Positions 2-57,452 of a DNA stretch of 64,000 nucleotides are shown here, piece after piece. The notes beneath the pieces are model-generated. The model was not told the DNA's origin, did no database searches, and saw only the letters and a program-made list of their open reading frames with translations. The translations under genes were made by a program, and so were the position numbers. Source of the stretch: Parcubacteria group bacterium GW2011_GWA2_42_14 (GTDB taxonomy: Bacteria > Patescibacteriota > Minisyncoccia > Sungbacterales > GWA2-42-14). Position 1 is the stretch's first letter; every line of letters begins with the position of its first letter. The DNA is taken from positions 6,392 to 70,391 of the forward strand of contig LCCV01000003.1 in the NCBI GenBank assembly GCA_000998135.1. The letters are read 5' to 3'.

Positions 2-259
2 ATCATTGAAGCAAGCGACCCAGAAAAAGCCGAGCAAGGAATCGCCAAGTTGGTTCTCACCTTGATAGAGTTGATCCGGCAACTTTTGGAAAGAGAGGCG
101 GTGAGAAGGGTCGATACCGGTACGCTTTCCGAGACGGAAATTCAGAAATTGGGACTAACCTTCAAGGCGTTGGAGAAAAAGATTCAAGAAATGAAAGCGG
201 TTTTCGGCATTAAAGAGGAACTGAATTTGGAGTTGGGGCCGCTGGGCAATCTCCTCTGA
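2..259 (+). CDS. gvpK: Gas vesicle protein GvpK (5' end truncated by the window edge)
   Basis: The reading frame is open from nt 2. The translation ...LVLTLIELIRQLLEREAVRRVDTG.LSE.E..KLGL......NLELGPLGNLL fits the GvpK family pattern as I recall it. Confidence 0.7.
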   Translation: MIEASDPEKAEQGIAKLVLTLIELIRQLLEREAVRRVDTGTLSETEIQKLGLTFKALEKKIQEMKAVFGIKEELNLELGPLGNLL

Positions 260-293: not shown

Positions 294-566
294 ATGACAA
301 ACGAACAAAAGAAAAAATTATCAGACCAAGAGATGACGAAGAAATCTCAGCAAGCGACCTTGCGTATGGCACAGGAATGGCAAAAGTCGGAAGACACAAT
401 CCACCACGCGCTCAAGTCGTATGAGGATGTGATTCAGGTTGACCCTGAAAGCGATGAGGCTGGTGAGGCGCGTGAGGCGCTCGTGAAAATTGCCGAGGAT
501 TGGGATAAAAAAGGTCGAAAATATGCCGCCGCGAAACTGTATAAGAAATTAATGGTCGGCAGATAA
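294..566 (+). CDS. hypothetical protein in the gvp cluster (helical, TPR-like pair)
   Basis: 90-aa ORF lying between gvpK and gvpA/J. No recognisable motif. Confidence 0.4.
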   Translation: MTNEQKKKLSDQEMTKKSQQATLRMAQEWQKSEDTIHHALKSYEDVIQVDPESDEAGEAREALVKIAEDWDKKGRKYAAAKLYKKLMVGR

Positions 567-1469: not shown

Positions 1470-2588
1470 ATGACTGAAGAAAGAAAATACATATATTCAA
1501 TAATTAATAACCCGAAAGAGATGCGGGTCTCAGACGCCTCTCGTCTACCGGGAGATCTATTTGGCATTAACAATCGCGATATAACTTTTATCTCCTATAG
1601 AGATATATCAGCTGCGGTTAGCAATATCCATCTTATTAATTTTGACAAGTTTGATAAAAAAGAACTCCATCAATTAATTGCGGCGCATGATCAGGTAAAT
1701 GTTAGTCTTATGAAGAAACACGATATTATTCCAATGAGATTTGGAATGATCGCAGAAAGCGCGGAAGAAATTCGCAATATTTTAGCCAAAGCATATATAC
1801 AATTTAAAACCGCTCTCGAAAGAATTGCCGGGAAAGCCGAATTCATCGTTCAAGTATTTTGGAACGAAAAGAATATACTTGAAAAGATAGTTCAGGAAAA
1901 TATTGAAATCCAAAAGTTAAAAAAGGATGTAGAGTCAAAGGGCAAGATTTTAGGGTTTTCATCCAAAATAAAATTAGGTAAGCGCATATTTGAGGGATTA
2001 GAGTCATGCCGCAAAGAATATACGGAAGGCATTTTAAGTAACCTCGCAACCAGCTTTCCAAATTTTAGCGCCGGCAAACTTCTCGATGCAAACAAAGAAA
2101 GCGCTGCTAACGAGACAAAAAAAGAAATGATTATGAACTATTCGTTTTTGATAGGCGCGACAGAAGAATCAGCTCTATCATTTAGATTGAATCAATTAGC
2201 TGAAAAATATAAAGATGAGATTAAGTTTAAATATATCGGGCCTATGGCGCCTTACAGCTTCGCTATTATTAATCTCAGTTTGGGAAACTTTGATTTAGTT
2301 GATAATGCCAGAAGGACTTTTGGGCTCGGAGAATCGGCGGCATTTTCAGAAATAAAAAAGATTTACTATAAGTTGGCTGGACAGCATCACCCAGACAAAC
2401 AAGCTTTTACAAAAGATCGGGTTATATTAGAGGGAGCAGAAAAGAAGATGAAAGACATAATAACAGCCAATGAGGTTTTAACTATTTATTGCAAGCATTA
2501 TCTTTCGGCTCTCGCGCCTGAGAAAGAGCAGCTTTGCTCTTTTAGAAAAGAAGATGTAGAAGATTCAATTATTGTAAAAACAAAGTGA
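1470..2588 (+). CDS. gvpF: Gas vesicle protein GvpF/GvpL family with a C-terminal J-domain-like (HPD) extension
   Basis: YIYSIIN...IPMRFGMIAESAEEIRNIL...AEFIVQVFWNEK matches the GvpF/L pattern (YLYGI..LPLRFG..VKVFWD). The tail contains YYKLAGQHHPDK, an HPD-loop-like motif. Confidence 0.8.
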   Translation: MTEERKYIYSIINNPKEMRVSDASRLPGDLFGINNRDITFISYRDISAAVSNIHLINFDKFDKKELHQLIAAHDQVNVSLMKKHDIIPMRFGMIAESAEEIRNILAKAYIQFKTALERIAGKAEFIVQVFWNEKNILEKIVQENIEIQKLKKDVESKGKILGFSSKIKLGKRIFEGLESCRKEYTEGILSNLATSFPNFSAGKLLDANKESAANETKKEMIMNYSFLIGATEESALSFRLNQLAEKYKDEIKFKYIGPMAPYSFAIINLSLGNFDLVDNARRTFGLGESAAFSEIKKIYYKLAGQHHPDKQAFTKDRVILEGAEKKMKDIITANEVLTIYCKHYLSALAPEKEQLCSFRKEDVEDSIIVKTK

Positions 2589-2591
2589 TTT

Positions 2592-2750
2592 ATGGCAATG
2601 GCAAGCATAGATACAAGCGAGTTGGAATATTTTAAATCATGCAGAGATAAACTGCGGGATATTGGCGATATTTTGAAAGACAAGAACGATGAAAAAGAAT
2701 TATCGATTGAGGAAAAACTAAGAGAAATAAAAAAGATTCTTAAAGGATGA
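2592..2750 (+). CDS. small helical protein (52 aa), hypothetical
   Basis: ORF MAMASIDTSELEYFKSCRDKLRDIGDIL... Its start region duplicates the sequence at 1421-1458. Confidence 0.3.
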   Translation: MAMASIDTSELEYFKSCRDKLRDIGDILKDKNDEKELSIEEKLREIKKILKG

Positions 2751-2850
2751 TTATACTTCGTATAATCTTCGTTCGCTCGGAAATCATAAAATAAAATTTT
2801 TGATTTCGTTCGCTCACTTGATTATAAGCATGGAGGGATTATGAATTTAT

Positions 2851-4350
2851 ATGGCGACCCCTAAAAATATTATGCCGCAGGGCGGCAATCTACCTGAGTC
2901 CACATTTGGGGCCCGCATTAAAGTTGTCGGCGTAGGCGGTTCCGGCTCAAATGCGGTTGATCACATGATAAACTCTGGCGTGCGCGGGGTTGATTTTATT
3001 GTGGTTAATTGCGATACCCAGGATCTTCATCATAATAAGGCGGAGAAAAAAATACATATTGGCAAAAACTTGACCCGCGGACTTGGAGCCGGGATGAACC
3101 CCGAGGTCGGTAGGCGCGCGGCTGAGGAAACCAAAAACGAGCTTCAGGACGCGCTGAAGGGCGCGGATATGGTATTTATTACCTGCGGATTGGGCGGAGG
3201 AACCGGTACTGGCGCGTCCCCGATTATTGCCGAAATAGCGAGAACCCAAGGGGCTCTTACCCTCGCGGTGGTGACAAAACCTTTTTCTTTTGAGGGGGCT
3301 GAGCGATCAAGAATTGCCGAGGATGGTTTGAGAGAACTTATAGGGGTAGTTGACACCGTTATCGTCATTCCTAACGACCGACTTTTGGAAATCAGCGATA
3401 AAAAAACCACCCTTCAAAATGCTTTCGCGCTCTGCGATGATGTCTTGAAAAACGCGGTTCAGGGCATCTCCGAACTCATCGTAATGCCAGGCATTGTTAA
3501 TCTCGACTTTGCCGATGTAAAGACAATTATGGGAGACGCGGGCCCAGCCATCATGGGAATAGGATCGGCCCAGGGAGACGAACGCGCGGTTGAGGCGGCT
3601 CGAAAAGCAATCAGTTCTCCTTTGCTTGATATTTCCATTAACGGCGCAAGAGGGATTCTTTTTGCGGTCGCCGGCGGAGAAGATTTGACGCTTCATGAAA
3701 TCAACGAAGCCGCAAAGGTTATTACAGAATCAGCCGACCCGCAGGCCAAAATCATATTTGGAGCTTTTCGAGATGATGCTATTAATAAAGGTTCGATAAA
3801 GATTACCGTCATTGCGGCCGGCTTCGCCAATCCGGGCCCAAACATTATTGCCTCGCCGCGGCCAAGAATTTTTGAGAACCAGGAGACAGCGGAAGAAAAA
3901 GGAGATGATGACGATATGGATAAGCCCGCTTTTTTGCGTAGAGGAAAATCGCCGCCTTCATCTCCGCAGGAAGGAGCTCGCCACGAAGGACACAAAAGAA
4001 AAAACGAGAATCCTCACAGAATTTCTCTTAATGCTTCTGTGGCGGGAGATATCATAAGGAAACTCCCATCAAATAATTTTATAGAAAATTATGGAATCAA
4101 AGACGAGGCATCCCGCGGCATAGATCTGCGGGATTTTAATGATAATAAAGACCGCGCCTCAACTCCCGCAAACCGATATGAAAATTTTCGTATTAACGCG
4201 AAAAAGACGCTCATCGCAACTTTAGCTATTTTTAAAAAGGCAGGGGAAATTTTTCTTATGCTTATTTTTGGGATAATAACCATCGTAGCTCTTGGGTTTT
4301 ACAGAATTTACAGTTTAATTAAGAAGCGGTTTCAACGAACGATTTATTAA
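2851..4350 (+). CDS. ftsZ: Cell division GTPase FtsZ with an extra C-terminal extension ending in a transmembrane helix
   Basis: VVGVGGSGSNAV, the GGGTGTGASP tubulin signature and NLDFADVKTIM are present. The conserved C-terminal peptide DKPAFLRRGK is followed by ~130 aa ending in the hydrophobic segment LIATLAIFKKAGEIFLMLIFGIITIVALGFY. Confidence 0.95.
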   Translation: MATPKNIMPQGGNLPESTFGARIKVVGVGGSGSNAVDHMINSGVRGVDFIVVNCDTQDLHHNKAEKKIHIGKNLTRGLGAGMNPEVGRRAAEETKNELQDALKGADMVFITCGLGGGTGTGASPIIAEIARTQGALTLAVVTKPFSFEGAERSRIAEDGLRELIGVVDTVIVIPNDRLLEISDKKTTLQNAFALCDDVLKNAVQGISELIVMPGIVNLDFADVKTIMGDAGPAIMGIGSAQGDERAVEAARKAISSPLLDISINGARGILFAVAGGEDLTLHEINEAAKVITESADPQAKIIFGAFRDDAINKGSIKITVIAAGFANPGPNIIASPRPRIFENQETAEEKGDDDDMDKPAFLRRGKSPPSSPQEGARHEGHKRKNENPHRISLNASVAGDIIRKLPSNNFIENYGIKDEASRGIDLRDFNDNKDRASTPANRYENFRINAKKTLIATLAIFKKAGEIFLMLIFGIITIVALGFYRIYSLIKKRFQRTIY

Positions 4351-4534
4351 AAAGAAAGCAAAAAAGAAATCCAAAAAAATGATGCTTTGCGACTGCGGCT
4401 CCGACAAACCGGCAATGGAATGTTGTAAGGCAGAAAAGTAATGGCGATCGCGGCATTATTATTTTTGATACACACTAACGAATTATTCGAGGAGAGCCGC
4501 CTTTCGTTAAAAGATTTTTAGCATTACAATAATG

Positions 4535-4640
4535 ATTGCCATGTCCCATCTTCGGGTGGCATGGCACAACCCTGCTTTTACGAGCAGGGACGCGCCATCC
4601 GGGATGTTCCAACCCCGGGTGGCTTTGTTTAAAGAGAAAA
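4535..4640. ncRNA. unclassified structured RNA candidate (three consecutive strong hairpins)
   Basis: Hairpin stems gccatg...catggc, ccctgc-ttttacga-gcaggg and gccatccggg-atgttccaac-cccgggtggc (10 bp with one G-U). The region has no ORF. Confidence 0.25.
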
Positions 4641-5117
4641 GTCATCTAAAAAGAAAATAAAAAAGAAATTAAATAATTCTAAAGGCCATTATTGACCAGT
4701 GAGACGACTTGTTGTAATATAGAGAGACCCTGAAGTTATCCACTTCTGCCAGCTTGACTGGATTTTGTGGAAAACATAAGGGTTGTGCTGAAGGCAAGAT
4801 CGAAGCCTTCCGCACCTACAAAACGAAAGATATCGTCCGTCCCCCAAATGGGGAACGAATTCCGCGAAAGCGGATGGAGTTGGAACACGGACTTCGAATC
4901 CGTACCCCGTTTAAAAAAGGCGGGGTAAAGTATCTATAATGGAAGATTTTTTATGTTATTATAAAGTTATCCGTAATAAATAAGCGGAAGAAGGGTAAAG
5001 GCAATCATGCCTAAAACCGCAAAAACAGTTATAACTATCCAGATGGCGTTAATAAGTTTTTTCTGTTTTTTGAACATATCTAAAGTATAGTTAAAATAAG
5101 AGCTGAAGTCAATTTGG

Positions 5118-5327: not shown

Positions 5328-5705
5328 ATGGAAGAACAATCTTTTTTTCAAAAATTTCTTAGGTCCCCATTCACGCTTATCGGCGGCTTGATTTTGTTTT
5401 TAATGATTTTGCATAACATTTGGGGAATAACGGAGCGGCTTCTTTCTTTTTATTACGAAAAAAGGGGATTGGAAACAAAAATCGCCGAATTGCAAAAAAG
5501 GAACGAAGATATAAAAAAAGAAATTAATTATACGGAAACCGAAGGTTTTTTAGAAAGGGAGGGGAAAGCGCGTCTTAATTTAAAAAAACCCGGCGAAGAA
5601 GTGGCGGTAATAGTGGAAGAGGAAGAAGTGATGCGGGTCGAAGGAGTGGAACAGGATTTTTGGAATAAGATGTTTAGTTCAGTTCTTTCGCTTTTGAAGT
5701 TCTGA
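5328..5705 (+). CDS. Septum formation initiator family protein (FtsB/DivIC-like)
   Basis: An N-terminal TM segment is followed by a coiled coil (KIAELQKRNEDIKKEINY) and the ARLNLKKPGEEV motif typical of FtsB/DivIC. Confidence 0.6.
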   Translation: MEEQSFFQKFLRSPFTLIGGLILFLMILHNIWGITERLLSFYYEKRGLETKIAELQKRNEDIKKEINYTETEGFLEREGKARLNLKKPGEEVAVIVEEEEVMRVEGVEQDFWNKMFSSVLSLLKF

Positions 5706-5844
5706 GATTTCCTAAATATTATTTGGTAAAATATCTTTTTGAGTAGTGCTTCATTTTGACGTGTAAAGAAAATGAGGGTAAGTTGAATTTAATTTAGTAG
5801 TATGATACACTTCGAACAGTTCGTTCTTTTACTGGGGAAAAATA

Positions 5845-6087
5845 ATGTCGAGTGAGCCATCTGGCGTTGTGGTTATGTTTAAAGAAGGGGTTACCGAAGA
5901 GCAAGTGAAACAATTTGTTGTATCCTACGGCTTTGCGGGACACTGCCTTAATCCGTATGGAGAATGGAAAGGAAAGAATTTGTTGTTTTTTATAAAAGTT
6001 CCCGATAAGGAAGAAGTGAAGTGGGTTATTGAGTTTAAACAAAGACAGGATGTGGTAAAAGACGCGATTCTAAACACCCCGGTATAA
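5845..6087 (+). CDS. hypothetical protein
   Basis: 80-aa ORF with no motif. Confidence 0.35.
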   Translation: MSSEPSGVVVMFKEGVTEEQVKQFVVSYGFAGHCLNPYGEWKGKNLLFFIKVPDKEEVKWVIEFKQRQDVVKDAILNTPV

Positions 6088-6099
6088 ACCGGGGTAGTT

Positions 6100-7200
6100 T
6101 TATTGTATCAGGAACTCTTCTATTTTTTTATTAGCCATTGTTTCTCCGTTTTGTCCTGATGCGACCCAGTAAATATCTTTATTTCTTTTAAACCACGTCA
6201 TCTGTCTTTTGGCGTACTGATGGATGGCGTTTTTTAATTTTTCCTTCATTTCGGCTCGCGCAAGTTTTTTTTGTAAAAAAAGTGAAACAAAGCGATATTC
6301 AAGCCCTAAAGATTGGAGGCGTTTATGCGAAACGCCTTTTTTTAATAAATTTTTAACCTCCTGAAACATGCCTTGTTTTAAGTGTGATTTTAGGCGTTTA
6401 TCTATTTTTTTATGGAGTTCTTTTTGGGGCAGATTTATGCCTAAAATTAGCGAATTCCAAAGATTAGCCCTGTTTTCAATGCTAATCCTTGGAATTGGGG
6501 AAATCGGTCTCGAGGTGGCTTTTACTATTTCAATTGCCCGAATCAGCCGTCTGGGATTATGATGGTCAATTGTTTTTGCGCGTTTTGGGTCGAGTTTTTT
6601 GAGTATTTGAAATAGTTCCGCTATCGATTTTTTAGAAAGTATGGCGCGCAGTTTGGTATTTGGCGGCACATTAGGAATCGGCAGGTTATACAAAACCGTA
6701 TCAACATAAAAACCTGTTCCTCCGCAAAGTATGGGAACTTTTCCGCGCTCATAATTATCTTTTATTGCCGTCTCCGCGCATTTTTTAAAATCTGCAATCG
6801 TAAAAACTTTTTTCGGCGATACGAAATCAATGCAGTGGTGAGGAACGTTTTTGTATATAAATATTTTGGAAGCCCGGTCGTCCAAAAACTGAATTTCGTC
6901 ATTGCGAGCGACCGCGGGGAGCGAAGCAATTTCTTTATTTAAGCCAATTTTAGAGATTGCTTCCTCGTTTCGCTTTCGGCGGAACTCTTCGCAATGACAT
7001 TTTTGGACAGTCGGACTTTCCGATATTGTTTTCCAGTTTCCGGGTACTTTTCCCGTTCCAATATTCAACCCCTTATAAACCTGCCTTGAATCAGCCGAAA
7101 TTATCTCGCCCTTGAATCGGCGAGCGATTTTAACAGCCAATTCCGATTTTCCGGAAGCGGTCGGCCCGACAACGGCGATAATTTTAATCTTTCTTTGCAT
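6100..7200 (-). CDS. miaA: tRNA dimethylallyltransferase MiaA
   Basis: IIAVVGPTASGKSELAVKIARRFKGEIISADSRQVYKGLNIGTGK is a P-loop N-terminus matching MiaA. Confidence 0.9.
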   Translation of the reverse strand: MQRKIKIIAVVGPTASGKSELAVKIARRFKGEIISADSRQVYKGLNIGTGKVPGNWKTISESPTVQKCHCEEFRRKRNEEAISKIGLNKEIASLPAVARNDEIQFLDDRASKIFIYKNVPHHCIDFVSPKKVFTIADFKKCAETAIKDNYERGKVPILCGGTGFYVDTVLYNLPIPNVPPNTKLRAILSKKSIAELFQILKKLDPKRAKTIDHHNPRRLIRAIEIVKATSRPISPIPRISIENRANLWNSLILGINLPQKELHKKIDKRLKSHLKQGMFQEVKNLLKKGVSHKRLQSLGLEYRFVSLFLQKKLARAEMKEKLKNAIHQYAKRQMTWFKRNKDIYWVASGQNGETMANKKIEEFLIQ

Positions 7201-7212
7201 ATAGTTTGGTAT

Positions 7213-7235
7213 AATAAAAAAGCCCGAAGCGGGCT
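7213..7235 (-). terminator. rho-independent terminator (minus strand) after the 7234-7701 gene
   Basis: On the minus strand: agcccgcttcgggct followed by tttttatta. Confidence 0.7.
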
Positions 7236-7701
7236 ATTCCTGGATTAGCTTTTTTGTCCGGCCTTCCTTTTTTACGAAAACGCGGACCTCTTTTTCAAAA
7301 CCAAGTCCTTTTAGGATTAATAGTTTGCTTTTAACCGTATCCCAATGGTTTTTCATTTTTTCTATATTAACGTTAGGCGAACGAGAGGCGGTATCGCATT
7401 TAGTGAGTTCCGTTTTTATATCTTGAAAAATATAATCGAGGAGAGCTTGATTTTTTTGAATAAGCTCTTTACTCCATTGTATTTTCCTGAAAAACCAGTA
7501 TTTTTTGGCGTTTTGTAAACCGTAATTTTTGAAAGCGATTTCCTGCGATAGCGGGTCTTCTCTAAAATTCTGGAGGACGAATTGGAACAGAGCTTCGTTT
7601 TTCTGCGCTAATTCTTCGCAGATTTGCCTGAGATTTGAACCGCGGTTTTTAAATTGTCGTGCAATATGGTCAGTTGTCGGCGTTTCATTTCTCCAACCCA
7701 T
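7234..7701 (-). CDS. hypothetical protein
   Basis: 155-aa ORF with a terminator hairpin downstream. No motif. Confidence 0.4.
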   Translation of the reverse strand: MGWRNETPTTDHIARQFKNRGSNLRQICEELAQKNEALFQFVLQNFREDPLSQEIAFKNYGLQNAKKYWFFRKIQWSKELIQKNQALLDYIFQDIKTELTKCDTASRSPNVNIEKMKNHWDTVKSKLLILKGLGFEKEVRVFVKKEGRTKKLIQE

Positions 7702-7796
7702 CCCCGCCTCCTTAGTTAGGTTTTTTACCGCAAAAAAGCCAAATAAAAGAACTTCTATATATTATACTTAGGTAGAAGGTTTTGTCAAGGGTTTTA

Positions 7797-9632
7797 TTAT
7801 TTATCTGCGAGTTTTAAGAAATCTTCAAGAGCCATTTTGCCCAAATCTCCTTTTTTGTGTTGTCTTACGCTTATGGTTTTTGATTCCATTTCCCGGTCTC
7901 CAATTATGATAATATAGGGGATTTTTTGGAGTTCGGCCTCTCTGATTTTTTTGCCGATGGTTTCGTTGCGTTGGTCATAAGATACCCGAATTTCCTTATT
8001 TTTAAGTGTTTTTACGATTTCTTCAGCATAGGAGTTGGCCCGGTCGGTTACGGTTAAAACGGTTGTTTGAACTGGTGCCAGCCAAAATGGGAATTCTCCG
8101 GCGTAGTGCTCAATAAGAAAGGCGATGAATCGTTCATGCGAGCCCAAAGGCGCCCGGTGAATAACATATACCGGTTTTTCTTTCCCATCATTATCAGTAT
8201 AGGTAAGGTTGAATCTTTTTGTGGCAAGAAAATCCAGTTGGTTGGTGGAGGCAGTTTCTTCCCGGCCGATAACGCTTTTTATTTGGAAATCAACCTTGGG
8301 GCCATAGAAAGCCGCTTCTCCTTCAGCTTCAATAAACGGCAGTCCGGATTTTTTCATAGTGCTACGCAGTATTTCAACAGACTTTTCCCATCCCTCGGGG
8401 ATATTGGCAAATTTATCTTTATTTTTCGTCGGTAAAGACAGGCGCATATAAAAGTCAGTAATGCTGAATACGTTTTTGTACCAAAACTCATGAAGTTTCA
8501 TGACTTTTAAAAATTCTTCTTCTACCTGATCTTCCCGGCAATAAATATGGGCATCGTTTTGAGTAAATCCCCGGGTCCGAAGAAGTCCGGCGAGTGTTCC
8601 TGAAAGTTCATAACGATATACTGTTCCATATTCGGCGTATCGTATGGGCAGGTCGCGATAACTGCGCGGTTCTGATTTATAAATCATGTGAGTATGGGGG
8701 CAGTTCATTGCTTTAAGGTAATAGTTGCCGTCATCAAGTTTCATTGGCGGAAACATGCTTTCGGCATAATAAGGAATATGTCCAGACATTTTATATAATT
8801 CTTCTTTGGCGATATGCGGAGTGGCTACGCGTTCATATCCCCAGTCTTTTTCAACTTTTTTAGCACGATTTTCAATCTCTTCCCTTATAATTGTCCCTTT
8901 GGGTAGCCAAAGCGGCAGGCCGGGGCCGACTTTTTCCGCGAAGGTAAAGAGTTTCAGTTTTTCTCCTAAGATTCTATGGTCTCTTTTTAATGATTCTTCC
9001 TGTTGCCAGAGATATTTTTTCAGTTCTTCCTTGGTTTCAAAAGCAACTCCATAAATTCTTGTAAGTTGCGGATTTTTTTGCTCACCTTTCCAGTAGGCGC
9101 CCGAAATCTTTGTTAATTTAAAGGCGTCCGGATTGATTTCTGATGTATTGGAAACATGTCCGCCACGGCATAAGTCGAAGAAACATGCTACATGCGACAT
9201 GTGACATGTGACCGGGTTTTTAAATTCCTTGTCTATTGTATCTTTTCCCTTGTCACTAAAAGTATGATAGGCGGTTATTTCCTTTTTTTCTTTTGCAAAT
9301 TCTTTAATGAGGTCTAATTTGAAAGGTTGTTCTTTAAAAATTTTTTTTACTTTGGCCGTCGTTAATTTCTCTCTTTTGAAATCGAGATTTTGTTTGAGCA
9401 TACTTCGCATCTCTTTTTCAATATCCTTCAAATTTATTTCTACGGTCGTTCCTTGTCCCATGTCGCTTGTCCCTTGTCCCTTTAATAAAAAATCGTAGTA
9501 AAATCCATTTTCAATGACCGGCCCTACGCCCAGTTTGGCTTGTGGAAATTTTTTGAGCACGGCCATTGCCAAAATATGGGCAAGGGAATGCCTGATTGAT
9601 TCAATCTTGTCTGTTTTTAAAAGTTTTTTCAT
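7797..9632 (-). CDS. thrS: Threonine--tRNA ligase (lacks the N-terminal TGS domain)
   Basis: The sequence shows RHSLAHIL (HxxxH), DLCRGGH and GPVIENGFYYDF, and a class II core HRAPLGSHERFIAFLIEHYAGEFPFWLAPVQ. Confidence 0.9.
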   Translation of the reverse strand: MKKLLKTDKIESIRHSLAHILAMAVLKKFPQAKLGVGPVIENGFYYDFLLKGQGTSDMGQGTTVEINLKDIEKEMRSMLKQNLDFKREKLTTAKVKKIFKEQPFKLDLIKEFAKEKKEITAYHTFSDKGKDTIDKEFKNPVTCHMSHVACFFDLCRGGHVSNTSEINPDAFKLTKISGAYWKGEQKNPQLTRIYGVAFETKEELKKYLWQQEESLKRDHRILGEKLKLFTFAEKVGPGLPLWLPKGTIIREEIENRAKKVEKDWGYERVATPHIAKEELYKMSGHIPYYAESMFPPMKLDDGNYYLKAMNCPHTHMIYKSEPRSYRDLPIRYAEYGTVYRYELSGTLAGLLRTRGFTQNDAHIYCREDQVEEEFLKVMKLHEFWYKNVFSITDFYMRLSLPTKNKDKFANIPEGWEKSVEILRSTMKKSGLPFIEAEGEAAFYGPKVDFQIKSVIGREETASTNQLDFLATKRFNLTYTDNDGKEKPVYVIHRAPLGSHERFIAFLIEHYAGEFPFWLAPVQTTVLTVTDRANSYAEEIVKTLKNKEIRVSYDQRNETIGKKIREAELQKIPYIIIIGDREMESKTISVRQHKKGDLGKMALEDFLKLADK

Positions 9633-10636: not shown

Positions 10637-10690
10637 AAGTTATTGATTCGCAATTTGCAGATTAGCATTATATTGCATTGGCGTAATTGT

Positions 10691-13600
10691 TTAAAGTATT
10701 TCCTCTGCCTCTTCGCACAATATTTTTATTGTATCATCCCTGCCCGCGTCGCTTATTCTGCCCTTTACAAGCAGAATTTTTTCTTCCTGCCAGATGGCGG
10801 GATTTTTTTCCAACACCCGGGGAAATACCAAAACCTCGGTTTTACCTGTCAGGTCCTCAATCGTTACAAAAAGCATGGGGGAACCGGCTTTGGTGATTAT
10901 TTTTTTTATTCCGGAAACGAGCCCGCCGATACTCAATAGCTTGTCTTTTGGCTGGTTTTTAAGTTCGTTTACGGCTATGACCCTATTTTGCAGTTTTTCT
11001 TTATATTCTTCAAGCGGATGTTCGGTTACGTAAAGCCCCAAAAGTTCTTTTTCCCAGGCGAGCATTTCGTTTTTTCCGGCAGACGGGAAAGATTTTAATT
11101 TTATTGATGAAACTTTAACTTCTGGGATTAAGGAGAAAAGGCTGGTTTGCCCCATGGATTCATTTTTTTGGTGGTCTCTGGCATATTCAAGAATGTTTTC
11201 AAGATTGCCCAGTAACGGGCCGCGTTCTCCCAATTCATCAAGCGCGCCGCATTTAATAAGTGATTCCAGGGATTTTTTGTTTAAATCTTTATGGCGGACT
11301 CTTTCTATAAAATCGGTAATGGATTGGAAGTGATTTCCTGATTCGCGCGCGTTGATTATTGCCTGAACAATATTGGCGCCGACGTTTTTAATTGATTCCA
11401 ATCCGAACCTTATTTTATCGTTTTCGTTGTTATTCTTAATAAGAGTAAATTTGGCAAAACTTTCATTGATGTTTGGCGGAAGGACAGGAATTTCCATTCT
11501 GGCGCATTCGGCAATTATTTCGGCAGCTTTTTCAATGTTGCCGGAATCAGCCGTAAGAACCGCGGTCATGTATTCACCCGGGAAATTAGCTTTCATATAT
11601 GAAGTTTGATAGGCGACTCTGCCGTAGCATGCCGCATGGGCTTTGTTGAAACCGTAACCTTGGAACGGTTCAAAAAGTTCCCATAGTCTTTCTGCTTCTT
11701 CGTGTTTCATTTTTCCGTGTTTAACACAGCCGTCCACAAATATAATATGCTGTTTTTTCATTTCTTCGGGAATTTTTTTACCTACGGCCTTTCTGAATTT
11801 ATCAACTTCACCCCAGCTATAGCCCGCGATCTCCATAGCTGTCATTAAAAGGTCGTCTTGGTAGACAAGCACGCCGTAGGTTCTGTCCAAATAACTTTTC
11901 ATTTTGGGATGAAGGTAGGTAAACTTTTTTAATCCATTTTTTCTTGCAATATATTCATCGATATTATTAATTGGGCCGGGCCGGTATAACGCAACCATAA
12001 CGTTTATATCGTGAATAGTGGTGGGCTTAAGTTCTTTTAAGTATTTCGTCATCCCAACTCCGTTTAATTGGAAAAGTCCAACGGTTTCACCTCTTTCCAA
12101 AAGCTCAAAAGTTTTTTTATCATCCAAAGGTATTTTTTCAATGTCTATTTCAATATCGCGGAATTTTTTTACGAGATGAACCGCGTCTTCAAGAATGGCA
12201 AGGTTTCTTATTCCTAAAAAATCGAATTTTAACAAACCCAAATCATCTACGGCATGCATGTCGTACTGGGTGATTATTTTTCCTCCTTTGGGGTCAAGCT
12301 GGAGCGGTACATATTCCCAAAGAGGTCTTGGCGTAATTACTACTCCTGCCGCGTGTACTGATATGTGGCGGGCGCATCCTTCTAATTTTTGCGCTTGAGT
12401 AATTACTGTTTTTACGTCCCTCTCTTTTTCTAATAAGTCTCTTAACTCCGGAGTAATTCTTAGCGCTTCTTTAATTGTCATGGGGAACCCCTGCGAGCCC
12501 AAAGGAATGAGTTTTGCTATTTTGTCTCCGATCGCATATGGATATCCGAGGGCTCTGGCAACATCGCGAACGGCGGCTCTGGCCATCATAGTTCCAAATG
12601 TGCCTATTTGCGCCACATGGTCTCGGCCATATTTTTCTTTGGCGTATTGGATTACTTCATCCCTTCTGTTATCGGCAAAATCCATGTCAATATCGGGTGC
12701 TGAAGGCCGTTCCGGGTTTAAAAATCTTTCAAAAGGCAGTTTATATTCAATAGGATTTACGTTGGTAATTCCTGTAAGATACGTAACAATGGAGCCGGCT
12801 ACGGAACCGCGAACCGTGGTAAAAATGTTTTTGGAATGAGCGTAGTTTATCAAGTCGGCCACCGCGAGAAAATACGGGGAAAATCCTTTGTCTTTTATTA
12901 TTTTTAATTCATATTCTACGCGCTCTTCCAGTTCTTTTGTTTTGTTAAGTCCTCGGTTTTTGATTCCGGCATAGGTTATTTTTTTCAGCTCGCTGTCATA
13001 GGTTTCTCCTTCCGGAATTTTGAGGTCTGGGAATGTCCAAGTCCCGAACGGTATTTCCAAATTTATTTTATTGGCTATCTCTTGGGTGTTTGCGATTGCC
13101 TCGGGCAGGTCCGGAAAAAGAGAAATCATTTCTTCCGTAGACCTCATTGATAAATTTGCTTCTTTCATGGTCAAGCGGTTTTCATCATCCATTTTGCTTC
13201 CGGTTTGCACCGATACCAGAATGTCCTGAGCTTCGGCATCAGTGGGCAGGGAATAGTGAGTATCGTTTGTGGCAACAAGTTTCGCCCCGGTTTTTTGCGA
13301 AAGCACCAGCAGTCCTTCATTTATGGTTTTTTGTTCAGGAAAATTAAAATGAGGCTGGATTTCCAGATAAAAATTTTCTTTGCCGAAAATATCCTGATAT
13401 TCGCGGGTTAATCTTTCGGCTATATCCATTTTTTTATTTTTTATTGCGTGTGGTATTTCGCCGTTGAAACATCCGGAAAGCGCGATTAGGCCGTTTGAGT
13501 ATTCGCGGAGAATTGTTTTGTCCACTCTGGGTTTATAATAGAATCCTTCCAGATGCGCCTTGGTTACGAGTTTAATGAGGTTATAGTATCCGGCAAGGTT

Positions 13601-56024: not shown

Positions 56025-57452
56025 ATGAAAGAGAAAGAAAAATATACTTCTGAACAAATCGAAAAATTTGAAACGTCAAGAACAATTTCTGACGCGGAGC
56101 TATTAAAATCCGGCGCGCGTTACGAAATTGACGGACAAACAGGGGAAAAACGGCTAATTGCGTCAGTGGAACAAACAGAACGTATTCATCAAGCGGTGGA
56201 AGATTTGCTTGCCAAGAACATTCTTAGTAAAAAAGAATTGAAAGATGTTGATTTTGATTTAACGTTTGAGGGGGAGGAGGGCGGAACCGGTTTTGAATTT
56301 GAGGTTGAAGAAGAGCAGAGGATACTGGTATCGCCTGAAAATATTGAGATTAAGGAGTGGAAGAATCATATTATTGACGTATATGATCAGTCCGGTAGGT
56401 GCCGCATCAGGGTGAAAAACGGAGAACCGCGGCTTTCCTTAAAGGTGCCGCTTTTATCGCGGGATACGGAACGCGCGAAATGCTGTGTAAGGATTGAAAT
56501 AAAGCCGCGAACTAAGGGGAAGGCGGCTATTTTTGAAAAAATGCGTGAGTTGATACTTCATGAACCGGGAACAGAAGTCCATGAAAAATGGGGAACCCCT
56601 ATTAAGACCAGGGACGGTAAGAAGATTTGGATTAATAAGGATGACCAGGGAAATTACTGGATAGAAACGGACGAGGGTGTGTCTGTGGAGGAATTATTGC
56701 CCGAAGGTGTCAGATATATAGGCCACGAAAAAAGTAAAATATCAATAGACAGGAACAGAGCCGTTGCGTCTCCTATAGAAAAATTGTCTAAGCTTAACAT
56801 AGTTCGTGGCAATGCTGAAAATTTTGAAACTTTTAAAAAGTTATTTCATGAAAATTTGGAATCAACCAGCCGGACCGCCAAGGGTTTAGTGGATGCATCC
56901 GTGAGTTCAAAAAAAGAAAAGCCGTCTATGGGAAAAGAAAAAATTACCGAATTTATGAAACAAAACGAAGAAGAAGTTATACAGTATATTTGGAATAGTC
57001 GCGATAGAGCTTATAATACTTCCGAGGAGATAAAACAATTGCTTAACGATATTATCGGAATAATAAACAAAAATATAGCATCGGAACCTTATAAATTAAG
57101 GGAATGGCCATGGCGGGATTTGCCCGCGGAAAGAATACGCGAGGAAGTGGAGCAATTTACATATGATTTATTTTCTAAGTTAGCCGGCATTGAAAGGGGC
57201 GCGGAAAAACCTTATGAAGTAGCATGCTGGGCGGAGCTTGAATATGACAGGAGAATCCACCCGCTTGTTGACGGATGCGGAAGGGTTTCAAAAGCGATTT
57301 CGGCATTTATATTATTACGCTATAAACATCCACTTCCGGACTACGGGTCGCGTGATGAGTATTATAAGGCAATGAATGATGATGAGGACTGTTTTAAAAA
57401 TTATTATCAGGGAGCGCTTCTTCGTTCAATAAACAAGGATTATCTAAAGTAA
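56025..57452 (+). CDS. Large hypothetical protein with a C-terminal Fic/Doc (Fido)-like motif (HPLVDGCGRVSK)
   Basis: ...EYDRRIHPLVDGCGRVSKAISAFILLRYKHPLP resembles the Fic core HPFx(D/E)GNGRxxR, with a Cys replacing the Asn and the trailing Arg lost. Confidence 0.45.
   Translation: MKEKEKYTSEQIEKFETSRTISDAELLKSGARYEIDGQTGEKRLIASVEQTERIHQAVEDLLAKNILSKKELKDVDFDLTFEGEEGGTGFEFEVEEEQRILVSPENIEIKEWKNHIIDVYDQSGRCRIRVKNGEPRLSLKVPLLSRDTERAKCCVRIEIKPRTKGKAAIFEKMRELILHEPGTEVHEKWGTPIKTRDGKKIWINKDDQGNYWIETDEGVSVEELLPEGVRYIGHEKSKISIDRNRAVASPIEKLSKLNIVRGNAENFETFKKLFHENLESTSRTAKGLVDASVSSKKEKPSMGKEKITEFMKQNEEEVIQYIWNSRDRAYNTSEEIKQLLNDIIGIINKNIASEPYKLREWPWRDLPAERIREEVEQFTYDLFSKLAGIERGAEKPYEVACWAELEYDRRIHPLVDGCGRVSKAISAFILLRYKHPLPDYGSRDEYYKAMNDDEDCFKNYYQGALLRSINKDYLK

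Follow-up and report, generated by a model that had tools for sequence, protein, structure and literature searches.

The DNA stretch analyzed here (64,000 nucleotides, positions 6,392 to 70,391 of contig LCCV01000003.1 of Parcubacteria group bacterium GW2011_GWA2_42_14; hereafter, the window) encodes, within a gas vesicle (gvp) gene cluster, a 372-amino-acid (aa) protein that combines two families. The C-terminal ~75 residues of this fusion protein are a J-domain, which is joined to the fold of the gas vesicle proteins GvpF and GvpL (GvpF/L). The fusion is a large, old, multi-phylum GvpF/L subfamily, and the gene of the window is one ordinary member of it.

Domain architecture of the fusion protein

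PF06386 (GvpL_GvpF) and PF00226 (DnaJ) are the only Pfam domains in the fusion protein (Table 1). The match to PF06386 spans profile positions 2 to 244/245. PF00226 matched residues 285 to 338 with 33.9 bits (E value of 3e-8) in the full protein and with 36.7 bits in the tail alone, both above the Pfam gathering threshold (GA) of 27.8 bits. In an hhalign comparison, a profile of 26 fusion tails matched one built from 28 canonical DnaJ proteins with a probability of 99.0% and an E value of 3.1e-18. This alignment pairs residues 282 to 339 with DnaJ positions 9 to 57, covering the end of helix I, helix II, the histidine-proline-aspartate (HPD) motif, and helix III. Only J-domains were found when the tail was searched against all PDB sequences with phmmer, with DNAJB8 as the top match (E value of 5.6e-4). 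A J-domain after the GvpF/L core, as proposed in the first-pass annotation, is thus recognized by Pfam, by profile comparison, and by superposition on solved J-domains (see below). The annotation had assigned the J-domain to nucleotides (nt) 2330 to 2588, a range that starts just upstream of helix II and ends with the stop codon. The start of helix I lies further upstream, at about nt 2286 (residue 273). The peptide FSEIKKIYYKLAGQHHPDKQAFTKDRVILEGAEKKMKDIITANEVL corresponds to residues 292 to 337 of the 372-aa translation of open reading frame (ORF) 1470..2588.

The NCBIfam models for DnaJ, CbpA-type proteins, and DjlA matched only the J segment, with 12 to 28 bits against cutoffs of 162 to 619, and matches to the ActJ and TopJ models were likewise restricted to the short J segment and far under their cutoffs. 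The equivalog models for GvpL and cyanobacterial GvpF scored 84 and 80 bits, under cutoffs of 200 and 350, respectively. These sub-cutoff scores indicate that the fusion protein is neither a canonical Hsp40 nor a named GvpF or GvpL ortholog. In addition, no glycine/phenylalanine-rich (G/F) linker, cysteine-rich (CR) zinc finger domain, or C-terminal substrate-binding domain (PF01556) was found in it by Pfam. Since the domains of class A and B Hsp40s are missing, the fusion protein is a class-C (type III) J-protein.

Predicted structure

A full-length AlphaFold2 model built from 118 homologs had a mean predicted local distance difference test (pLDDT) score of 85.6 and a predicted template modeling (pTM) score of 0.82, and a separate model of the tail (residues 267 to 372) had a pLDDT of 83.1. 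In the full-length model, the pLDDT of the J region is mostly >90 and falls to ~73 in the loop after HPD (residues 311 to 320). The modeled elements are a helix at residues 273 to 283, a helix at 292 to 306, HPD at 307 to 309, a helix at 317 to 346, a strand at 355 to 357, and a helix at 360 to 367. HPD lies between helices II and III in both models. Helices I to III and the HPD loop are canonical, with helix III extending to residue 346.

In Foldseek searches against the PDB, the core matched the GvpF structures 6l5d_B (E value of 3.3e-14; target-normalized TM score of 0.85) and 4qsg (E value of 2.7e-13). The tail matched the J-domains of 5nro_B, 6rzy_A, 2qsa, 7jtk_y, and 2och with probabilities of 0.99 to 1.00 and root mean square deviations (rmsd) of 1.4 to 2.0 Å over 58 to 61 columns. 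The rmsd was 1.5 to 1.7 Å over 59 columns at 36% identity for 5nro_B, which is Escherichia coli DnaJ bound to DnaK, 1.4 Å for 2qsa, and 1.5 to 1.9 Å for 6rzy. With the tail-only model, the first ~45 Foldseek entries were nearly all J-domain structures, HscB and CbpA among them.

Conservation of the HPD motif and of helix II

Three alignments of 118 (A1), 22 (A2), and 36 (A3) sequences were used, and the HPD column is invariant in all of them. HPD is present in all 118 close homologs, in 81 of 85 distant homologs, and in 144 of 145 further representatives at 50% identity. Invariant columns of the 118-sequence alignment include Y299, H307, P308, D309, and A333, and conservation reaches 90% or more at positions K310, L337, Y340, C341, S357, D362, and V363. 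By alignment with E. coli DnaJ, Y299 corresponds to Y25, HPD to HPD, K310 to R36, A333 to A53, and L337 to L57. The basic character of helix II is kept through K296, K297, and K301. In the complex of DnaJ with DnaK, the contact residues of DnaJ include Y25, K26/R27, and F47. Position 327, equivalent to F47, is methionine in the clade of the window and phenylalanine in members outside Patescibacteria, and the clade nearest to the window carries an insertion of 6 to 11 residues after HPD. The conservation pattern indicates that the HPD motif and the helix II face are under strong purifying selection.

Conservation extends to both sides of the J-domain. The linker motif GNF[DE]L[IV][DN]xAR..LGL is common to fusion proteins across phyla, and the C-terminal motif Y/C-S-F-x-K/R-E-D-V-E-x-S is common to members from Patescibacteria and from other phyla. 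Near-invariant positions of the C-terminal extension are Y340, C341, S357, F358, D362, and V363.

Distribution and origin of the subfamily

The first homolog search retrieved 120 clusters at 90% identity, sharing from 97% down to 41% identity, and the named members were all Patescibacteria (Yanofskybacteria, Falkowbacteria, and Minisyncoccia). An exhaustive HMMER search over 1.84 billion 50%-identity representatives returned 1,065 matches with E values of ≤1e-30. The best 150 of these all align through the J region, the 150th still having an E value of 5e-74, and 145 of these 150 were new. In addition, a genome scan with one genome per species recovered 38 loci. In total, both domains occur together in >190 homolog clusters at 90% identity and the fusion in at least 150 clusters at 50% identity. 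The same fusion, which the first-pass annotation had proposed to look for in relatives, is found in many phyla. Matches to the canonical GvpF/L of Halobacterium, Streptomyces, Rhodococcus, and others stop at about residue 264 to 273 of the query.

HPD-bearing fusions were found on contigs assigned to KSB1, Chloroflexota/Dehalococcoidales, Clostridia, and Thermodesulfobacteriota. High-GC carriers include Deltaproteobacteria (GC of 0.53 and 0.63), Elusimicrobia (0.65), and the isolate Thiohalocapsa sp. ML1 (0.68). Further carriers are the cultured, gas-vacuolate Desulforhopalus vacuolatus (homolog P0133), Pseudorhodobacter, Planctomycetota, and Candidatus Aerophobetes. In Octadecabacter arcticus 238, which is also cultured and gas-vacuolate, the fusion (WP_015497776.1; 360 aa, DnaJ match of 28.0 bits, HPD present) is encoded on the finished plasmid pOA238_160 (NC_020910.1). 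The possibility that the fusion is an invention specific to Patescibacteria was ruled out by the high-GC contigs (0.53 to 0.68) and by the isolates of Alpha-, Gamma-, and Deltaproteobacteria. Some taxon labels of metagenome-assembled genomes (MAGs) are doubtful, so the claim of breadth rests mainly on isolates and high-GC contigs. In three loci (L005, L014, and L026), the contigs are low in GC and the fusion groups with those of Patescibacteria, while the MAG titles give Gammaproteobacteria or Neomarinimicrobiota; these labels are probably due to mis-binning.

A neighbor-joining tree was constructed from 96 GvpF/L core domains alone, with the J part removed. All 38 J-bearing sequences, together with one truncated copy, fell into one clade, which is separate from two clades of plain GvpF/L. 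Two to three plain GvpF/L genes lie beside the fusion gene in loci L001, L003, L044 (D. vacuolatus), and L045 (O. arcticus). The J-bearing form has a single origin as a third GvpF/L paralog, distinct from the plain forms, and has been kept in the gvp clusters of many phyla.

Proposed role of the fusion protein

In earlier work, GvpF was the primary protein to bind GvpA at its hydrophobic N-terminal part, in a transient and chaperone-like manner, and a scaffold function for GvpJ, GvpK, and GvpS/M was assigned to GvpL (PMC11445434; PMC7688916). Each of the three GvpF paralogs of Serratia is needed (PMC4982088). Binding of GvpA-family proteins and a requirement for vesicle formation are known for canonical GvpF/L (PMC7688916, PMC11445434, PMC4982088). 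The conservation of HPD suggests that the J-bearing paralog recruits Hsp70, and we consider it likely that the fusion acts as a class-C J-protein through which housekeeping DnaK reaches GvpA-family clients or the assembly complex. In J-proteins generally, the HPD loop triggers ATP hydrolysis by Hsp70, which then clamps a nearby client. In the fusion protein, the GvpF/L part would dock on a shell or nucleator protein of the GvpA family (GvpA, GvpJ, or GvpS/M) or on the GvpF/L/G/K assembly complex, and the J-domain would recruit ATP-bound housekeeping DnaK and trigger its ATP hydrolysis. DnaK would then clamp an exposed hydrophobic segment of the shell protein, and the aggregation-prone subunit would stay soluble and be transferred to the growing vesicle, where it would be inserted. 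The fusion protein probably acts alongside other products of the gvp clusters, namely, Hsp20/GvpH, a DnaJ-type zinc finger protein, a Cdc48-like AAA+ protein, GvpN, and an ArsA/Get3-like ATPase.

Several points weigh against the recruitment of DnaK. The binding of DnaK, the stimulation of its ATPase, and the binding of GvpA are all putative properties of the fusion protein. The Foldseek E values of the J part are weak when taken alone (0.06 to 5), and the tail-only model brought no better ones (0.18 and worse). In addition, the canonical helix IV is missing from the models and a family-specific tail with a strand (355 to 357) and a helix (360 to 367) takes its place, the sequence there being YC...SFxKEDVExS rather than the helix IV motif of DnaJ. 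The four-helix J fold anticipated in the first-pass annotation is therefore present in its helix II-HPD-helix III layout, which superposes on solved J-domains, and departs from the textbook form at helix IV. No dnaK, dnaJ, or grpE gene was detected by tblastn within the 64-kb window, nor was any of them within ±10 kb of the fusion gene in 45 related loci, which points to the housekeeping DnaK as the putative partner. In favor of such a partner, the J part of the search profile also retrieved class-A DnaJ proteins of the canonical type from Patescibacteria (P0224, P0231, and P0248), which indicates that the phylum has a DnaK/DnaJ system. HPD itself is replaced by QQD, HKD, HQD, or HQE in four clusters of Rhodobacterales (Roseobacter), namely, P0175 (Octadecabacter antarcticus 307), P0155, P0156, and P0165, which keep the domain and the tail. 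Coupling to Hsp70 thus appears to be dispensable at least in this sub-branch. O. arcticus 238, the sister strain of O. antarcticus 307, retains HPD. Lastly, in the best-studied gas vesicle systems, the GvpF/L proteins have nothing beyond the core domain; this is seen for Halobacterium in the homolog alignment and is known from the literature for Anabaena and Bacillus megaterium. Since these systems form vesicles without it, the J-domain would be an accessory refinement and not a core requirement.

Alternative explanations

The same coupling to DnaK could serve the opposite direction, with the fusion protein acting as a remodeling or clearance factor. The GvpF/L part would then recognize shell protein in mis-assembled aggregates, in scaffolds due for release, or in the sheets of collapsed vesicles, and DnaK, with Hsp20 and either the Cdc48-like AAA+ protein of the cluster or ClpB, would be brought in by the J-domain to extract and recycle the subunits, in a manner similar to the recruitment of Hsc70 to clathrin coats by auxilin. 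Across phyla, the fusion gene is linked to genes for Hsp20 and a Cdc48-like unfoldase, as seen in the gene overlap of L003 and the gene order of D. vacuolatus (see below), and this linkage is consistent with such a role. However, the fusion gene sits in biosynthetic gvp operons beside the nucleator-type genes GvpJ and GvpK, the gene order around it is variable, the J-protein reported for Dolichospermum in an earlier study is not a GvpF/L fusion, and the sequence is equally compatible with delivery and extraction. Clearance is an unlikely main function. In another explanation, which we regard as quite improbable, the J-like domain has no Hsp70 function and serves, together with the C-terminal extension, as a surface for interaction or oligomerization in the assembly complex. 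Such a structural module would agree with the persistence of domain and tail in the four Rhodobacterales clusters, with the non-canonical helix IV followed by a strongly conserved extra tail, with DnaJ scores barely over the GA in O. arcticus (28.0 bits) and Thiohalocapsa (28.4 bits), and with the pTM score, which suggests that the J part is packed at a fixed position on the core. Yet more than 340 sequences that otherwise diverge to as little as ~22% identity share an invariant HPD and retain the other DnaK-contact positions, and this is hard to explain without selection for an interaction with Hsp70. J-like domains without Hsp70 function typically lack HPD.

A chance resemblance, an assembly chimera, or read-through of a GvpF/L gene and a small J-protein gene has a negligible probability. 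A 38-nt repeat flanking the gene (see below) hints at a local rearrangement, but more than 190 clusters at 90% identity, and no fewer than 150 at 50% identity, show the same single-ORF architecture in independent assemblies. Finished or isolate genomes (the O. arcticus 238 plasmid NC_020910.1, D. vacuolatus, and Thiohalocapsa sp. ML1) carry the fusion, the linker motif is itself conserved, and the domain statistics are well beyond chance. Recurrence, linker conservation, and statistics together exclude this explanation.

The recruitment of DnaK by the fusion protein may also be one step of a longer route. By analogy with the eukaryotic relay of tail-anchored proteins from Hsp70 and its J-protein to Get3, the fusion protein could be the entry to a cluster-encoded, Hsp70-coupled targeting pathway, an extension that we consider rather improbable. 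DnaK, recruited by the fusion protein, would capture nascent GvpA-family subunits; the zinc finger protein and Hsp20 would hold them; and the ArsA/Get3-like, Cdc48-like, and GvpN ATPases would bring them to the growing vesicle and insert them there. If this is true, many bacterial gas vesicle clusters would encode their own proteostasis and insertion machinery around the host Hsp70.

Genomic context in the window

The window starts inside the gvp cluster, with GvpK and GvpA/GvpJ-family genes upstream of the fusion gene (Table 1).

Table 1. Coordinates of the fusion gene, its domains, and neighboring features in the window
Feature	Position (nt)	Strand	Evidence
GvpF/L-J fusion gene, 372 aa plus stop	1470..2588	+	ORF list, sequence, Pfam GvpL_GvpF and DnaJ
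GvpL_GvpF core domain, residues 6-265	1485..2264	+	PF06386, E value of 8.9e-52, 177 bits; AlphaFold model versus GvpF crystal structures
J-domain, residues 273-346 (helix I 273-283, helix II 292-306, HPD loop, helix III 317-346)	2286..2507	+	Pfam DnaJ, hhalign, DSSP of models, Foldseek
HPD tripeptide H307 P308 D309, codons cac cca gac	2388..2396	+	Direct sequence reading; invariant alignment column
Family-specific conserved C-terminal extension, residues 340-370	2487..2579	+	Column statistics; motif common across members; model
3' part of GvpK gene, cut by window start	2..259	+	PF05121 GvpK, 86 bits; frame open to window edge
90-aa ORF between GvpK and GvpJ-like genes	294..566	+	ORF list; sub-threshold Pfam matches only
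GvpA/GvpJ-family small hydrophobic gas vesicle protein, 104 aa	584..898	+	PF00741 Gas_vesicle, 62 bits; top NCBIfam match GvpJ, sub-cutoff
Winged-helix and helix-hairpin-helix (HhH) protein, 173 aa	907..1428	+	Weak HHH_5 and DUF7343 matches
52-aa ORF directly downstream of fusion gene	2592..2750	+	ORF list; no Pfam family
ftsZ	2851..4350		Window gene order

The gene cut by the window start is probably the C-terminal (GvpK) part of a GvpA-GvpK fusion; GvpA-type and GvpK domains occur in one protein of ~190 aa at positions 9073 to 9645 of L001 and 15385 to 15963 of L003. The 90-aa ORF probably belongs to the gvp cluster, judging from its position alone, and the GvpA/GvpJ-family protein is a candidate client of the fusion protein. 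The winged-helix/HhH protein is a conserved neighbor of the fusion, with tblastn matches in 6 related loci; an HHH_5 protein is encoded directly upstream of the fusion gene in L004 and within the cluster of L003. The 52-aa ORF is possibly the last gene of the cluster.

A direct repeat of 38 nt (87% identical; positions 1416 to 1453 and 2576 to 2613) flanks the fusion gene. The copies cover the last three codons and the stop codon (...KTK followed by stop) of the HhH and fusion genes and the start of the next ORF. After the second copy follows the 52-aa ORF, whereas after the first copy only a remnant of 13 codons is left (MATASIDINRRSP, then stop); the first 8 codons of the 52-aa ORF are duplicated as a remnant at positions 1434 to 1453. 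The repeat is absent from the 45 related loci. It looks as if a local rearrangement had brought the fusion gene to this position and left the repeat as a scar, and we do not regard the repeat as part of the system.

The gene directly after the gas vesicle cluster encodes FtsZ in the window and also in L001 (13254 to 14444), L002 (6371 to 7561), and L009. The fusion proteins of the window and of these distant FtsZ-linked relatives are only ~42 to 65% identical. The FtsZ of the window has a C-terminal extension of ~170 residues that ends in a hydrophobic, membrane-anchor-like stretch. Beyond ftsZ, the window contains housekeeping genes, encoding MiaA, ThrRS, DnaE, FtsH, SMC, ATP synthase, and RpoB. 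No tRNA gene was found by ARAGORN and no Rfam family reached its gathering threshold within the 64-kb window, and ORF 56025..57452 (475 aa) matched no Pfam family at an E value of ≤1e-5.

gvp clusters of the relatives

Complete clusters with GvpA, GvpN, GvpG, GvpO, GvpK, and GvpJ are present in L001, L003, L004, L044, and L045. The clusters of the relatives also encode Hsp20/GvpH-like proteins, a Cdc48-like double AAA+ protein, a Volactin-family actin, and an ArsA/Get3-like ATPase. A stand-alone protein of ~160 aa with the central (CXXCXGXG) zinc finger of DnaJ is encoded at positions 5001..5483 of L003 (PF00684; 35.1 bits against a GA of 32.7), and DnaJ-type zinc finger proteins also occur in L001 (1287 to 1772) and L004 (8721 to 9266); the gvp clusters that encode them together with the fusion are from Patescibacteria, KSB1, and Chloroflexota. 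The J-domain and zinc finger parts of a DnaJ are thus found as separate proteins of the same gvp cluster. In tblastn searches of the 45 loci, Cdc48-like, Hsp20, GvpN, and zinc finger genes were found near the fusion gene in Patescibacteria, KSB1, Chloroflexota, and Thermodesulfobacteriota.

The clusters of Patescibacteria contain a Cdc48-like AAA+ protein, a Volactin actin (309 bits), one or two copies of an ArsA/Get3-like ATPase, and bactofilin, a complement that to our knowledge lies outside the classical gvp gene sets. These cytoskeletal and ATPase genes are located at positions 6507 to 8663, 10645 to 11769, 11779 to 12717, and 17034 to 17447 of L003 and at 2385 to 4568, 5558 to 6655, and 11055 to 12998 of L001. 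The Volactin protein was considered as a cluster-encoded Hsp70 and rejected, as it is a genuine Volactin-family actin with 309 bits and no HSP70 match. In L003, the end of the Cdc48-like gene (8663) overlaps the start of the fusion gene (8660). In D. vacuolatus (L044, 4846 to 13716), the gene order is σ54 activator, Hsp20, Cdc48-like AAA+, GvpF/L, GvpF/L-J, GvpF/L, histidine kinase, and response regulator. The right-hand operon of Serratia ATCC 39006 resembles this arrangement; no Serratia protein was among the matches of the word-limited profile search for the fusion. In Thiohalocapsa sp. ML1 (L043, 10001 to 10924), the fusion gene lies among transporter, nonribosomal peptide synthetase-like, and OmpA-family genes, and no gvp gene was found within ±10 kb of it.

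Comparison with known systems

The fusion protein shares the fold and family of GvpF/GvpL (4QSG from Microcystis and 6L5D from Anabaena) over residues 6 to 265, as well as the location in a gvp cluster with GvpK and a GvpA/GvpJ-family gene. However, the canonical proteins end at the core, whereas the fusion adds the J-domain and a conserved C-terminal tail and forms a separate paralog clade. With E. coli DnaJ (5NRO), it has in common helices I to III, HPD, the equivalents of Y25/F47/A53/L57, and the basic helix II, but it lacks the G/F region, the CR zinc finger, and the C-terminal substrate-binding domains of DnaJ. The CR-type zinc finger occurs as the separate 160-aa protein in the clusters of its relatives.

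HscB (Hsc20), which functions in iron-sulfur cluster assembly, is likewise a class-C protein in which a J-domain is combined with a dedicated client-binding domain, escorting IscU to Hsp70, and its structure 4it5 was among the J-domain matches of the tail model. However, the J-domain is N-terminal in HscB and C-terminal in the fusion protein, and the two have no sequence relationship beyond the J-domain. HscB also has a dedicated Hsp70, HscA, encoded adjacent to it, whereas no Hsp70 gene is present in the 45 fusion clusters. The concept of a J-domain tethered to a module that recognizes an assembly is shared with TopJ of the Mycoplasma terminal organelle and with auxilin, which uncoats clathrin, but their targeting domains and assemblies are unrelated to those of the fusion, and the NCBIfam similarity to TopJ is weak and confined to the J-domain (14.5 to 17.7 bits against a cutoff of 300).

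Novelty and implications

No J-domain on GvpF/L is mentioned in the GvpF/L papers searched. In the open-access literature, to which the search was largely confined (most subscription journals lay outside its scope), neither a J-domain on GvpF/L nor recruitment of Hsp70 in gas vesicle assembly is described, and the sole co-mention of "gas vesicle" and "J-domain" is in an unrelated maize study. The statement of the first-pass annotation that such a fusion had not been described for canonical GvpF/L therefore holds for this literature, but the two-domain architecture was already visible in database annotation. Every full-length cluster of the first homolog search was pre-annotated with both Pfam domains, and public records carry the labels "DnaJ-domain-containing protein 1" (some records of the Joint Genome Institute, JGI) and "GvpL/GvpF family gas vesicle protein" (RefSeq). 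As a GvpF/L subfamily and as a class-C J-protein alike, the fusion is new, being undescribed in the open-access literature searched. The classic gas vesicle model systems appear to be without it, and the evidence presented here is purely computational.

The extremely hydrophobic, aggregation-prone GvpA must stay soluble and enter the growing vesicle, and GvpF was only recently proposed as a chaperone of GvpA (PMC11445434). Heterologous expression of gas vesicles is reported to cause proteotoxic stress in E. coli, and this stress limits such expression for acoustic reporter genes (PMC12848028). Clusters that supply a J-protein, Hsp20, and AAA+ partners themselves may differ in their behavior, or they may depend on the compatibility of the host DnaK. 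The HPD-less protein of O. antarcticus 307, a strain described as gas-vacuolate, and the HPD-bearing protein of O. arcticus 238 provide a natural loss-of-motif comparison. The subfamily would be a bacterial member of the small group of J-proteins that serve the construction of a single cellular structure, and a conserved, HPD-bearing GvpF/L paralog would be the first direct molecular link from gas vesicle assembly to the general Hsp70 system.

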